Shown here: positions 16,264 to 20,129 of the stretch, piece by piece | Layout: the number at the start of each line of letters is the position of its first letter | Position numbering within the stretch: position 1 is the first letter of the stretch | NCBI GenBank assembly: GCA_963717505.1 | Contig: OY970342.1 | Span: forward strand, 3,904,001 to 3,968,000 | DNA: 64,000 nucleotides | Direction of reading: 5' to 3' | From: Candidatus Eiseniibacteriota bacterium | Lineage (GTDB): Bacteria > Eisenbacteria > RBG-16-71-46 | The notes under the pieces: model-generated | What the model was told of the DNA's origin: nothing | What the model saw: the letters and a program-made list of their open reading frames with translations, nothing else | The model's database searches: none | Made by a program: the position numbers and the translations under genes

Positions 16264-17628
16264 TCAGCCCTGGTAGTAGCGGTCCGCCACCTCGAGGGCC
16301 TTGTCGATCGCGGCCAACCCCTCGCGCGCTTCGTCCGGCGTGGTGGTGCATGGCGGCGTCACCTGCAGCCGGTTGAAATGAGCGAACGGCCAGACGCCGC
16401 CCGCCTTGCAGGCGCTCATCAGCTCGACCATCGGCTGGGCCGCCGGCCCCGCGGCGTTGAACGGCACCAACGGCTCACGCGTGTCGCGATTGCGCACCAG
16501 CTCGATCGCCCAGAACACGCCGAGCCCGCGCACCTCGCCGACGCTCGGGTGCCTGGCGGCGATCCTTTCCAGCTCGGGACCGATCACCTCGGCGCCCAGG
16601 CGCCGGGCGTTCTCGATGATCCGTTCCTCCTTGAAGACCCCGATGCTGGCCACGATCGACGCGCACGCCAGCGGATGCCCCGAATAGGTGAGGCCACCCA
16701 GGTACACGCGATCCTTGAAGGTCTCGGCGATGCGCCGGCTGATGATCACGCCGCCGACCGGGACGTAACCCGAGTTGGAGCCCTTGGCGAAGGCGATCAG
16801 ATCGGGCGTCACCTTCCAGCGGTCGACCGCGAACCATTCGCCACAGCGTCCGAAACCGGCCATGACTTCGTCGCAAATCATGACGATGCCGTGCTTGGTG
16901 CACAGATCGCGCACGCCCTGCAGGTAGCCATCCGGCGGCACCAGGATGCCGTTGGTGCCGACCACGGTCTCGAGCACGATCGCGGCCACCGTGTGCGGCC
17001 CCTCGACCATCAGGACGTTCGACAGATGCTCGAGCGCACGCGCGCATTCTTCGGCGGCATCCCGCGCGTGGAACGCGGATCGATAGAGATAGGGACCCCA
17101 GAACTTGACGATCCCGGGCATGCCCGGCTCGCTCCCCCATCGGCGGGGATCGCCGGTCATGGTGATCGAAGTTCCGGTGGCACCGTGATAGCTGCGATAG
17201 GCGGTCAGCACCTTGTGGCGGCCGGTGTGTCCGCGCGCCATCCGCACCGCGTTCTCGTTCGCCTCGGCGCCGCCGTTGGTGAAGAACACCATGTCGAGAT
17301 CGCCCGGAGCCAGCTCGGCGATCAGGCGCGCGGCCTCGCTGCGCATGTCGTTGGCGTGGAACGGCGCAATGGTGCACAGGCGCGCCGCCTGTTCCTGGAT
17401 CGCGGCGATCAGCTTGGGATGCTGGTGCCCGATGTTGACGTTGACCAGCTGGCTGGAGAAATCGAGCCAGGTGTTGCCCTTGTCGTCCCACATGCGGGAG
17501 CCCTTGGCCCCGGCGATCACCGTGGGCTTGAGCGCCCCCTGGGCCGACCAGGAGTGGAAGACGTGGGCGCGGTCGTTGGCGTAGGCGCTGTCGAGATAGG
17601 GCGAGGTGTGCGTTTCGAGGTGGGTCAT
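16264..17628 (-). CDS. Class III PLP aminotransferase (taurine/omega-amino acid:pyruvate-like)
   Basis: FFTNGGAEANE, SYHG, DEVMAGFGRCG, PDLIAFAKG, GLTYSGHP. Confidence 0.92.
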   Translation of the reverse strand: MTHLETHTSPYLDSAYANDRAHVFHSWSAQGALKPTVIAGAKGSRMWDDKGNTWLDFSSQLVNVNIGHQHPKLIAAIQEQAARLCTIAPFHANDMRSEAARLIAELAPGDLDMVFFTNGGAEANENAVRMARGHTGRHKVLTAYRSYHGATGTSITMTGDPRRWGSEPGMPGIVKFWGPYLYRSAFHARDAAEECARALEHLSNVLMVEGPHTVAAIVLETVVGTNGILVPPDGYLQGVRDLCTKHGIVMICDEVMAGFGRCGEWFAVDRWKVTPDLIAFAKGSNSGYVPVGGVIISRRIAETFKDRVYLGGLTYSGHPLACASIVASIGVFKEERIIENARRLGAEVIGPELERIAARHPSVGEVRGLGVFWAIELVRNRDTREPLVPFNAAGPAAQPMVELMSACKAGGVWPFAHFNRLQVTPPCTTTPDEAREGLAAIDKALEVADRYYQG

Positions 17629-19097
17629 GAAGGATATGATACGTGACGTGAGAGCACTACGAAAACTGCGGTGCAGTTGCGTGAGTCGGAGCGGGCCGGA
17701 GGCCACGCTTCCGAAATCAAGCGCCGTGGGGTAGATCGAGCACTCGCAACCGAGGTGACGATGCCCTGGATCGTCGCGAAGACGTCGGAACAGCCTTCGT
17801 CACTGGAGCGGATGCGCCACTCGCCCAAGGTGGTATCGCAGCGCGTCGGCTGGCCGACGCTGAGGTCGGCTCTCCAGCAGAGGGTGAAGGTGCGCGACTG
17901 CCCGGCGTTCAGGCTGTACGGCGGACTGCTTCCCGCACCACTGATCGTCACGCCATCGAGCAGGATGGTGCCCGTGTCCCAGCCGATTTGCTGGGCACTC
18001 AAGTTGCCGGTCTGCAGCGTGCTCGAATTGTTCTTGAGCGTCAGGCTGCCACAGCGGATCTCGCCGGGCCGGAAGTAGCCGAAGTGGATCTGCTCAGGCT
18101 GGTAGGAGCAGCCGATCACGCCGCTGCCCCAGCAGCTGAGCGGCGGGCAGCCGGCTCCGACGTTGACTTCGCAGGTGTGGTCGCCGACGTAGATCGGCTC
18201 AAAGCGCACGATGAAGGTCTGGCGCTCGCCCGGACCCAGGTCGTAGCTCGCTTGGCCGGCAATGCTGAAACCGGGGCAACTCTCGGTAACCGTGCCCGCC
18301 AGGTTGCTGGTGCCCACATTCGTGAGCTCGAAGGTGGCGTCGGAGCGAGTGCCCAGCGCCTGCTGCGGGAACAAGAGACCGCTGACGGAGAGCTGGCAGG
18401 CGGGATCGACGGGAACCCCGGTGCCGGTGCACATGATTGCTGGGCAGCCGGAGGCGGTGATCGTGCAGCTTTGGATCCCGGCTTGGCTTGGGTGGAAGCG
18501 GATCGTGAGGGTCTCTGACTGGCCTGGGCCCAAGTCGTAGCCCGTCAGGCCCTCGATCGCGAAGGCTGGGCAAGATTCGGCGAGGCTTCCGACCAGCCGG
18601 CGAGTTCCGGTGTTCGTGACGGTGAAGGTTCGATCCAGGACCTGACCGACGGTCACGCTACCGAAATCAAGGGTGGCCGGCGATACAGCACAAGTATCCG
18701 GTCCCGGGATCCCCGTGCCCTGGCAGGCCACGATGCATGCGGCCTGGCCGGTCGAGACCGTACAGCGATATGCACCCTCCGCCGGAGGAGAGAAGCGGAC
18801 CGCGATGATGACGGATTGGCCCACGCTCAGGACGTAGTCGGAGCTCCCAGCAATCAGGAAGCCGGTGCAGTTGGCGGTCAACGCTCCCGACAGGACACCG
18901 TCGCCGGCGTTGGTCAGGGTCACCTGCCGGTCCGCGGACGATCCGACGGCGACGCTTCCAAAATTCATGCTCGTGGCACTGAGCGAGCACTGGGGCGACG
19001 GCGGTGCCGTCGGGGGATCGGATTTCTTGGCACACGCCAGCGCCGCCGCAACAAGCGTGAACAGGACGTACGAGGAGATGCGAGGGTTGGGCTTCAC
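17625..19097 (-). CDS. Lipoprotein with ~4 Cys-rich ASH/choice-of-anchor-D Ig-like repeats
   Basis: Lipobox ALA-C; repeats C..S...(L/M).FG.V.VG...D....(L/V)TN.G...L.G; GTGA overlap with recombinase stop. Confidence 0.78.
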   Translation of the reverse strand: MKPNPRISSYVLFTLVAAALACAKKSDPPTAPPSPQCSLSATSMNFGSVAVGSSADRQVTLTNAGDGVLSGALTANCTGFLIAGSSDYVLSVGQSVIIAVRFSPPAEGAYRCTVSTGQAACIVACQGTGIPGPDTCAVSPATLDFGSVTVGQVLDRTFTVTNTGTRRLVGSLAESCPAFAIEGLTGYDLGPGQSETLTIRFHPSQAGIQSCTITASGCPAIMCTGTGVPVDPACQLSVSGLLFPQQALGTRSDATFELTNVGTSNLAGTVTESCPGFSIAGQASYDLGPGERQTFIVRFEPIYVGDHTCEVNVGAGCPPLSCWGSGVIGCSYQPEQIHFGYFRPGEIRCGSLTLKNNSSTLQTGNLSAQQIGWDTGTILLDGVTISGAGSSPPYSLNAGQSRTFTLCWRADLSVGQPTRCDTTLGEWRIRSSDEGCSDVFATIQGIVTSVASARSTPRRLISEAWPPARSDSRNCTAVFVVLSRHVSYPS

Positions 19098-19771
19098 GGC
19101 GGCAAGTCTCGATACCCGGGGGCGGGTGGTTCATGGACAAAGCCCGAGCCGACGCTTGCCGGCTGAGTCTGGTACGCCGCGCCTGAGTCCGGATGCACGA
19201 TCCACGGCGATCGCTCGAGCTGCTCGAAGAGCGCGGCGCGATGTCGGTCGGTGATCCGCGCGTAGATCGAGGTGCTCCGAATCGACTGATGTCCGAGGTG
19301 ATCCTGGACGAACTCAAGACTGACGCCGGCATCCAACAGATGCGTCGCGATCGAGTGCCTCAAGCAGTGGCAGGTGTACCGACTGGGCAGATGCGCGCGA
19401 TCGCGGTAGCGGGCGAACAGGGACTGGATCTGGCGTTTGCGCAGCGGCCCATCGCGCCCGGGGAACAGGGGACCATCCGGACGACCTGGAGCCATGGCCC
19501 GGAATGTCTGCAGCAAGCTTGCTGTCGAGCCGAACAGCGGCCGCTCGGTCCACGCCCCACCCTTGAGTCGCTTGACCACGATCCGGCCGCGTTCGAAATC
19601 GACGTCGCCACGGACAAGGAGTGCTACCTCCCCGACGCGCAGGCCGTAGTGATAGATCAGCGCGAAAAGCGCGCGGTCGCGAGGCTCCGCGATGGCCTGG
19701 AAAAAGGCACGGACTTCGATCTGGGTGAGGTAGCGGGGCAGGCGCTGACTCGCGCCCGCGGGGCGGGGCAT
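19094..19771 (-). CDS. Tyrosine recombinase, catalytic-domain-only (FimB/FimE-like size)
   Basis: YLT..EV, GLRVGE (R), RLKGG (K), HCLRH (HxxR), LGH, TSIY (Y); 225 aa, no N-terminal core-binding domain. Confidence 0.92.
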   Translation of the reverse strand: MPRPAGASQRLPRYLTQIEVRAFFQAIAEPRDRALFALIYHYGLRVGEVALLVRGDVDFERGRIVVKRLKGGAWTERPLFGSTASLLQTFRAMAPGRPDGPLFPGRDGPLRKRQIQSLFARYRDRAHLPSRYTCHCLRHSIATHLLDAGVSLEFVQDHLGHQSIRSTSIYARITDRHRAALFEQLERSPWIVHPDSGAAYQTQPASVGSGFVHEPPAPGYRDLPP

Positions 19772-19801
19772 GGATTCGAGGGGATCAAGGGCGAGACCGG
19801 C

Positions 19802-19829
19802 ACTGCACCTTTTAGCGAAACGGTGCGGT
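19802..19829. other. Putative recombination site A (11-6-11): ACTGCACCTTT-TAGCGA-AACGGTGCGGT
   Basis: Palindromic arms around asymmetric core, 30 bp upstream of recombinase ATG. Confidence 0.7.
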
Positions 19830-19964
19830 GCTTGGGCTTGAGCCGACCGGGCGGGACCTGAGGAGGGTGTCGGCCGGTCGGCCAGGTCAACCGAGGAATC
19901 AGGCCGTGGCAGAAACCGGCGTTCTTGCCGTTACTTCAGCGGATTCTGGGGGCCCAGAGGCGGG

Positions 19965-19992
19965 ACTGCACCTTCTCGCTAGATGGTGCGCT
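19965..19992. other. Putative recombination site B (11-6-11): ACTGCACCTTC-TCGCTA-GATGGTGCGCT
   Basis: Same arms as site A; core is the exact reverse complement of site A core. Confidence 0.7.
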
Positions 19993-20129
19993 AGGAATTC
20001 CAAACATACGCTCTCAAGCTCCGATCGTCAATCCGCTCGCGAAACCGTCCATCTCTCCTCCCTACATTCAATTCAAACGGAGCCCACGGTTACCACCCAC
20101 GCCCAGAAGGTCCCAGTGCTTTCAGCTTG

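Follow-up and report, generated by a model that had tools for sequence, protein, structure and literature searches.

A candidate invertible leader switch beside a single-domain tyrosine recombinase in Candidatus Eiseniibacteriota

Positions 19802-19992 of a 64,000-nucleotide stretch of contig OY970342.1 (assembly GCA_963717505.1, Candidatus Eiseniibacteriota; the whole stretch is hereafter called the window) probably form an invertible leader switch that is run by the tyrosine recombinase encoded next to it. The element consists of two 28-bp sites, a proximal site A and a distal site B, which enclose a short segment between a predicted promoter and the recombinase gene (Table 1). This reading is carried by the inverted relation of the central six base pairs of the two sites, which is kept in homologous loci where the sequence of these base pairs has changed, and by a sister subfamily of the recombinase in which the segment is found in both orientations between like sites. 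That the copy in the window itself inverts is what we infer from these comparisons.

Paired sites with inverted cores

Both 28-mers lie where a first-pass annotation, made from the letters of the window, had placed them, and their 6-bp cores TAGCGA and TCGCTA are, as it had claimed, exact reverse complements. The 11-nt arms around the cores are partly palindromic. Aligning the sites as direct repeats, 163 nt from start to start, gives an identity of 80% over 30 nt. The partner sites are inverted, flank a short segment and adjoin a recombinase gene, which is the layout of an inverton. A 26-nt degenerate pattern derived from both sites has exact matches in the window at these two places only, where 0 are expected by chance (100 shuffles of the window), and a third match, with 3 mismatches, is site A read on the opposite strand. 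A looser pattern found no further exact match across the whole 4.16-Mb single-contig genome. Similarly, a weight matrix trained solely on the sites of other loci ranks site A and site B (37.2 and 29.9) ahead of everything else on both strands of the genome, the next best score being 19.4. The palindromic GCACC/GGTGC arms that had first been pointed out are present, but as a pattern of their own they are no rarer than chance: GCACC-N12-GGTGC with one mismatch allowed has 6 matches against 5.0 expected. Since this 5-nt arm pattern is not rare, the significance of the pair rests on the full site and on the relation between the cores.

The recombinase belongs to a family of short proteins, of which the 120 best of 887 matches measure 192-277 aa, are 63-100% identical, carry PF00589 as their only domain and start just before the catalytic domain. 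The named genome records for this family are from Candidatus Eisenbacteria. Its distribution is patchy, with members in 14 of the 206 genomes of the phylum and in 13 of 83 genera (E up to 1e-40), and across taxonomic families these members are 66-86% identical. For one member at 75% identity (P0066) the source gives Candidatus Bathyarchaeia as the organism, which would mean either a mis-binned contig or a transfer into an archaeon. Metagenomic homologues were included by taking 80 of 553 matches, and the first locus set comprised 28 upstream regions, all with a recombinase at least 63% identical save L060 (52%).

The paired motif, which the first-pass annotation had proposed to look for beside homologous recombinases, is indeed there: both sites stand at the same places in 22 of the 28 regions, all 22 with a recombinase at least 63% identical, and in six more loci of a second set (17 loci from a separate genome search, of which 9 were duplicates and 2 were L014 and L015 again). 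The six regions of the first set without the pair are L029-L031, where the upstream sequence is shorter than 220 nt, L014 and L015, which have no distal site, and L060, which has none; the proximal site is present in 27 of the 28. From start to start the sites are 136-177 nt apart, with spacers of 108-149 nt, and 28 loci share the order promoter, distal site, spacer, proximal site, recombinase and variable cargo gene. In L014 (= L109) and L015 (= L111), where the proximal site is kept and the recombinase is intact, a distal site could not be recognised within 900 and 326 nt, respectively; these two may be naturally locked or decayed switches.

A comparison of the 22 loci position by position bears out the 11-6-11 layout that had been read from the single pair, and gives its core sharp borders. 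At each of positions 12-17 all 22 loci show agreement between the distal site and the reverse-complemented proximal site, and not one of the 132 core cells holds a G-T pair; at the adjoining positions 11 and 18 the agreement falls to 12 and 9 of the 22, respectively. This inverted relation is maintained while the core itself varies among loci, with seven cores in the 22 loci (TAGCGA, TGGCGA, TAGCAG, TGTCAG, TTGCAG, TAGAAG and TCGCGG) and an eighth, TAGTTA, in L114. The geometry 11-6-11 is that of dif-type sites, and a strictly identical, sharply bordered 6-bp block between 11-nt arms is, at the level of sequence, the signature of a tyrosine-recombinase crossover region. In tyrosine recombinases, opposite core polarity means inversion.

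A search free of any given motif, which scored perfect 6-bp reverse-complement cores between palindromic and similar arms, yielded 22-38 at the family loci and at most 20 among 33 more distant homologues. Likewise, no comparable site pair was found in 38 distant loci (30-52% identity), and the layout therefore appears to be confined to two subfamilies, the Eisenbacteria-type family and the low-GC (guanine plus cytosine) sister group described below. Four genomes hold two copies of the module each (L112/L122, L120/L123, L118/L124 and L121/L125). Three of these copy pairs share a core (TGGCGA, TAGCAG and TGGCGA), which would allow recombination between distant copies, and the fourth genome has TTGCAG and TAGCAG.

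Spacers in both orientations in a sister subfamily

The members of the sister subfamily, which come from low-GC organisms and are 45-56% identical to the enzyme of the window, repeat this layout but have other arms (AGTTAnACATTTT-like): an extended -10 or sigma-70 promoter, a distal site, about 115-190 nt, a proximal site and, behind it, the gene of a recombinase with about 200 aa. Its cores AACCAA, AATCAA, TGACTA and TTAACT are exact reverse complements in the loci analysed. Five of its spacers are strongly C-rich on the sense strand, with C/G counts of 44/11 in L041, 76/20 in L042, 54/22 in L046, 55/16 in L047 and 29/9 in L050, and in two others the counts are reversed (13/59 in L043 and 13/56 in L049).

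The alignments of these spacers agree with the counts. The L049 spacer matches the reverse complement of L047 with a score of 35 and that of L046 with a score of 32, and none of 1000 composition-matched shuffles scored as high in either case; it has no forward alignment to L047 or L046 (837 and 131 of 1000 shuffles, respectively, reach the score). For L043 against the reverse complement of L042, 18 of 1000 shuffles reach the score, as compared with 463 of 1000 in the forward direction. The recombinases of these flipped-spacer pairs are 73% and 77% identical. Both orientations are thus found between like sites beside related enzymes, and inversion between such sites has therefore occurred in nature. 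The first-pass annotation had proposed an invertible segment of this kind, for which L043 and L049 supply the inverted versions.

The distal sites of L025 and L045 score at noise level (16 and 18), and L025 was for that reason discounted as an inverted example despite its G-rich spacer. Further low-GC relatives were sought in 401 sampled genomes of the phylum to which the L025 genome belongs, and only the query itself came up. Beside one of the sites, 14-16 nt into the segment, there is a conserved motif some 17 nt long that is rich in T, A and C. It is on the side of the proximal site in L041, L045, L046 and L047 and, reverse-complemented, on the side of the distal site in L049, so that its place changes along with the flip. 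An accessory or DNA-bending protein might bind there; attempts to assign the motif to a promoter or to a bending site both failed.

The recombinase, the promoter and the leader

The open reading frame (ORF) of the recombinase has the length of 225 aa and the distance of 30 nt from site A that had been claimed for it. Its match to PF00589 (103.2 bits with a cut-off of 27.1, spanning positions 2-170 of the 172 in the profile) places it in the superfamily, and the catalytic set that the first-pass annotation had called complete is so: R45, K70, H135, R138, H161 and Y170, which we take to be the catalytic residues from their usual motif contexts, are invariant in 28 aligned members. Equally invariant in these members is a C-terminal motif, S-P-W-I-V-x-P (S188, W190, I191, V192 and P194; residues 186-194). 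Following the catalytic tyrosine, it may substitute contacts of the absent N-terminal domain or act between subunits. An AlphaFold model (mean predicted local distance difference test score, pLDDT, 82.7) suggests a lone catalytic domain, with moderate confidence in the region of the tail motif and pLDDT below 50 in the last ~20 residues. The best fold match of the model is the catalytic part of the archaeal Xer recombinase 4a8e (template-modelling score, TM, 0.64), which likewise ranked first in a sequence search of the PDB. The idea that an N-terminal domain is concealed upstream of the ATG was rejected, none being found in the three upstream reading frames.

The description of the enzyme as FimB-like holds for its size and presumed role, but its sequence is nearer to Xer-type catalytic domains and stays far below the cut-offs of the FimB/FimE models (NF007370 and NF007371, 58.7 and 59.0 bits against 221 and 222). 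It is also below the cut-offs of all Xer models (XerC, XerD, XerA and XerS), of which XerA comes closest with 124.5 bits against 220, and the matches are confined to the C-terminal ~170 positions of these models (90-258 in XerA, ~90-290 among the models). The integron integrase model gives 91.4 bits against a cut-off of 265 and, as with the FimB/FimE models, the match is limited to its C-terminal part. Recombinases that lack the core-binding domain in this manner apparently represent a new enzyme family. The same genome contains a distant tyrosine recombinase homologue (C1:3604182-3604856, 39% identity), interrupted by one TGA, and three further, weaker partial matches elsewhere.

A consensus scan predicts a sigma-70-like promoter on the minus strand, the only promoter-like site in 19600-20300, where 0.1 would be expected. 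Its -10 hexamer ends 10 nt ahead of the distal site, which accordingly sits at about the predicted transcript start. In 19 of the 22 homologous loci the end of the top-scoring promoter-like hexamer pair is similarly 3-19 nt ahead of the distal site; the mean best promoter score is 8.5 of 12 in the 22 loci versus 6.2 in 61 control windows. Inside the segment no promoter-like site was found on either strand in the 22 loci (best 6-8 of 12), and a promoter within the segment was rejected, neither strand scoring above 8 of 12. With the predicted promoter outside and none inside, the promoter would therefore be fixed and the segment would belong to the leader, so that its orientation must act after initiation. 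By consensus scan, a promoter upstream of the segment and none within it is the arrangement of a leader-type switch, and it is in line with the earlier suggestion of an effect on read-through and not on a promoter. The TTGACC hexamer mentioned in that context is present, on the minus strand. The perfect 9-bp stem reported with it is real and lies within longer, imperfect arms of 17 nt, but no T run follows it on either strand; its sequence is not kept in the spacers of other loci. An intrinsic terminator as the basis of the switch was rejected, as no stem with a T run is predicted.

The spacer sequences are poorly conserved, yet they are consistently C-rich and G-poor on the sense strand, which here is the minus strand. 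Indeed, the 135-nt spacer of the window has 56 C and 36 G, and the spacers of the 22 loci together have 1172 C and 718 G, a C-G skew of +0.24 that is positive in 21 of the 22; for comparison, the upstream 150 nt have a skew of -0.08 and the coding sequence has one of +0.11. In 20 of the 22 loci the flipped RNA forms the more stable predicted fold and the sense RNA the less stable one. The leader of the window itself, with C/G counts of 87/58 in the native and 68/77 in the flipped orientation, has folding energies of -83.9 and -111.9 kcal/mol, respectively. This weaker folding arises from the C-G skew and hence is not independent evidence. A gene for Rho is present in the genome (719 bits, cut-off 509), and C-rich, G-poor, weakly structured RNA is, in the general terms in which PMC7446863 describes it, the classical loading substrate of Rho.

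These features can be assembled into a mechanism as follows. From a fixed promoter, transcription would pass the distal site, the 135-nt spacer and the proximal site before it reaches the recombinase and the overlapping gene for an immunoglobulin (Ig)-like surface protein. The recombinase would bind the four 11-nt arms as two dimers and exchange strands within the identical, oppositely oriented 6-bp cores, which would flip 157 bp. In the assembled orientation the C-rich, G-poor and weakly structured leader RNA would let Rho load and attenuate transcription before the recombinase, giving a low-expression state; in the flipped orientation the leader would be G-rich and more structured, and transcription would pass. 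Because the recombinase lies behind its own switch, the expressing state would favour its own reversal and be self-limiting. Such self-reversal would explain why one orientation dominates assemblies; on this view attenuation is expected of the dominant orientation, in keeping with its being C-rich. Orientation-dependent termination by Rho in particular is a tentative part of this scheme, possible on the strength of base composition and held with distinctly less confidence than the switch as such.

Several observations weigh against the switch being active as described. Among 28 Eisenbacteria-type loci no clearly flipped spacer was found: the skew ranges from -0.06 to +0.46, with 27 loci positive or near 0 and L033 at -0.06, and all alignable spacer pairs share one orientation, about 9 of 22 spacers being similar enough to compare. 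In this subfamily inversion is thus either rare, strongly biased, or lost. The inverted spacers come from two loci of a subfamily that is 45-56% identical, and the comparison of their sequences is between organisms and not within a population. In the read archive (Logan), three DNA runs of one study, and no RNA run among those listed, cover the words of the stretch to 0.39, 0.11 and 0.00, and the three contigs that fall on it, at a depth of 2-3, contain no junction, a coverage too thin to count for or against inversion; one of them spans site A in the reference orientation and one ends at 19970, inside site B. The action of the adjacent enzyme on sites A and B is deduced from its adjacency, and that of Rho from base composition, with 0 terminator-like sites predicted in the native region. 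Finally, synapsis of sites 163 bp apart needs sharp bending, and no site for an accessory protein has been identified.

Competing explanations, cargo genes and comparable systems

Given that the informative Eisenbacteria-type loci are all in one orientation, the sites might be recombinase-binding operators that mainly autoregulate the promoter, with the segment effectively locked and inversion an ancestral trait. We regard this as unlikely. It would suit the position of the distal site, which begins 10 nt past the -10 hexamer at the transcript start and could be looped to the second site, and also L014 and L015, which lost the distal site and keep the proximal site and the gene. However, binding alone needs no exact reverse-complement cores through at least seven core changes, a constraint that is specific to strand exchange. 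Autoregulation by the distal site may well coexist with the switch as an added layer.

The complementarity of the cores could also be read as that of an RNA, with the sites forming a long-range helix, or hairpins with kissing 6-nt loops, that would govern translation or stability of the recombinase mRNA. Given the position of the predicted promoter, the transcript would contain both sites, and in the lowest-energy fold of the native leader the distal site is paired with the proximal one; covariation that preserves complementarity is expected of an RNA helix as well. Such a helix should nevertheless tolerate G-T pairs, of which the core cells hold none although A/G changes are common there, and its complementarity would hardly end abruptly at a 6-bp block centred between arms that resemble protein sites, with positions 8-11 and 18-21 matching in just 5-18 of the 22 loci (position 19 alone at 18). 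Nor does an RNA element predict the reverse-complemented spacers between the same sites in L043 and L049, or explain why it is always accompanied by a recombinase with intact catalytic residues. A search of 19600-20300 against Rfam (E up to 10) gave no family, with two chance-level matches only. A role of the sites in RNA is therefore, in our view, quite unlikely.

Very unlikely is a service of the sites in integration, excision or capture, as in an integron or an element exploiting Xer, or in the mobility of a recombinase-plus-cargo module, for the patchy occurrence (14 of 206 genomes) at 66-86% identity across families and the gene behind the recombinase that differs by locus do suggest horizontal movement of the module, but there is no third site in the genome and hence neither a cassette array nor a distant partner, the cores are inverted in 28 + 7 loci where excision would need direct ones, the interval between the sites is small, constant (spacers of 108-149 nt) and gene-free, and the enzyme remains below the integron-integrase cut-off (91 versus 265 bits). 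An integron-like array was rejected for the two sites being the only ones in the genome.

Under the preferred reading of an invertible leader switch, the presumed cargo is the 490-aa Ig-like protein, whose start overlaps the stop of the recombinase by 4 nt. A same-strand ORF follows the recombinase in 10 of 10 other Eisenbacteria-type loci tested. In 8 of the 10 it encodes a differing protein of repeat or extracellular type (Ig-like, FN3, PKD, BNR/sortilin, beta-helix, PEGA or beta-propeller), and of the remaining two one has a weak TPR match only and one belongs to no family. The cargo is more varied in the low-GC loci, with a methyltransferase, an FGE-sulfatase-type enzyme, NHL and WD40 propellers, a transglutaminase and four ORFs without a family. 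As the cargo differs from locus to locus, the module of recombinase and switch looks portable, judging by gene content. A wider claim, which we consider doubtful though worth stating, is that of a portable, self-resetting phase-variation cassette: the flipped part would be neither promoter nor terminator hairpin but a strand-asymmetric stretch on which Rho loads in one orientation only, a recombinase of about 200 aa without a core-binding domain would stand behind its own switch, and the whole would have come to precede numerous cargo genes unrelated to one another, in two bacterial lineages or more, with at least 12 natural core variants.

Upstream of the switch lies a large Rhs/YD-shell gene that is overlapped by a small ORF, which is the usual layout of polymorphic toxin and immunity genes. 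The gap of 137 nt between the small ORF and site B holds the predicted promoter, and no terminator is predicted between this ORF and that promoter; read-through into the switch is therefore possible.

Table 1. Coordinates of the switch, the recombinase and the neighbouring genes (positions in the window)
Feature	Position	Strand	Remarks
490-aa Ig-like repeat protein	17625-19097	-	Signal-peptide or lipoprotein-like N-terminus; HYDIN/VesB-like Ig, ASH, DUF1573
225-aa tyrosine recombinase, catalytic domain only	19094-19771	-	Pfam PF00589, residues 14-175
Site A (proximal site)	19802-19829		30 nt before recombinase ATG; matrix score 37.2
Proximal core TAGCGA (+ strand)	19813-19818		
Presumed invertible segment, 157 bp	19819-19975		Two inner arms and 135-nt spacer
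Imperfect inverted repeat (hairpin)	19842-19882		Arms 19842-19858 and 19866-19882, 17 nt, 82% complementary
Site B (distal site)	19965-19992		11-nt arm, 6-bp core, 11-nt arm; matrix score 29.9
Distal core TCGCTA (+ strand)	19976-19981		Presumed crossover region
Predicted sigma-70-like promoter TTGACG-17 nt-TATGTT	20031-20003	-	Consensus scan; outside the segment
120-aa ORF	20130-20492	-	No Pfam/NCBIfam family; overlaps Rhs/YD-shell gene
1840-aa Rhs/YD-shell (teneurin-like) protein	20435-25957	-	Upstream of the switch

Among known systems, the flgB switch of C. difficile with its recombinase RecV offers the closest parallels in layout. According to the accounts of it in PMC7446863 and PMC5386303, it comprises 154 bp in a leader, is promoter-free and needs Rho for its OFF state, and it was first noticed from the genome of one strain that carried the segment inverted (PMC5386303). 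The two share a short segment (154 versus 157 bp here) with imperfect inverted repeats in a promoter-free leader downstream of the promoter, and the comparison of genomes with inverted segments is the same kind of evidence as that for the sister loci. They differ in that RecV, encoded elsewhere, acts on several switches, whereas the recombinase described here is encoded by the first gene after the switch that it is presumed to flip. Furthermore, the strand asymmetry is strong and conserved here, while the portion of PMC7446863 that deals with the AT-rich flgB leader states that its authors did not find a rut-like composition in it. The cwpV switch, as summarised in PMC5386303, is likewise a leader between a promoter and the gene of a cell-surface protein, and in its OFF orientation an intrinsic terminator forms. 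It resembles the present case as an invertible leader ahead of a surface-protein gene and differs in this terminator, no stem with a T run being predicted in the native region here.

The fimS switch of E. coli with FimB and FimE is similar in that tyrosine recombinases of about 200 aa act on a short regulatory segment beside their own genes. By contrast, the promoter lies inside fimS and outside the segment here, the fim repeats are 9 bp with flanking half-sites and not 11-6-11, and the enzyme studied here scores 59 bits where the FimB/FimE cut-offs are 221-222. A feedback of fimS orientation on the fimE mRNA, by way of a Rho-dependent terminator, is mentioned in PMC5386303. With the Xer/dif system the recombinase shares its closest matches in sequence and fold, which are Xer-type catalytic domains (the XerA model and 4a8e). 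It differs from Xer recombinases in having no N-terminal core-binding domain and in scoring below the cut-off of every Xer model. Its gene also has two inverted sites next to it in place of a single site at the terminus, and the family is patchy, not universal.

A search of the literature for Eisenbacteria together with recombinase found nothing that joins the two, and literature on invertons, tyrosine recombinases, metagenomes and terminators contained nothing on this family among the titles and abstract openings listed. A conserved recombinase-site family in soil bacteria is thus apparently undescribed. What would be new in it is that the enzymes form a family devoid of a core-binding domain, that the enzyme is encoded behind the switch it is presumed to run, that the strand asymmetry of the flipped part is conserved, and that the module has spread before variable cargo in uncultured environmental lineages.

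The discrimination of leader orientations by Rho was left open in the C. difficile work, as stated in the relevant part of PMC7446863. The asymmetry described here, being reversed in 2 of 7 low-GC loci, would offer a clean test of how Rho tells them apart. The fully defined 11-6-11 sites, the one-domain enzymes of about 200 aa and the core variants (at least 8 + 4) would moreover be a source of compact, possibly orthogonal pairs of recombinase and site. Most known cases of programmed DNA inversion come from bacteria of the gut and from pathogens. If the interpretation as an invertible leader switch is true, it extends such inversion to an uncultured soil phylum and defines a recombinase family together with its sites from sequence alone, and the predominance of surface or secreted repeat proteins among the cargo in Eisenbacteria would point to phase-variable cell surfaces in soil bacteria.

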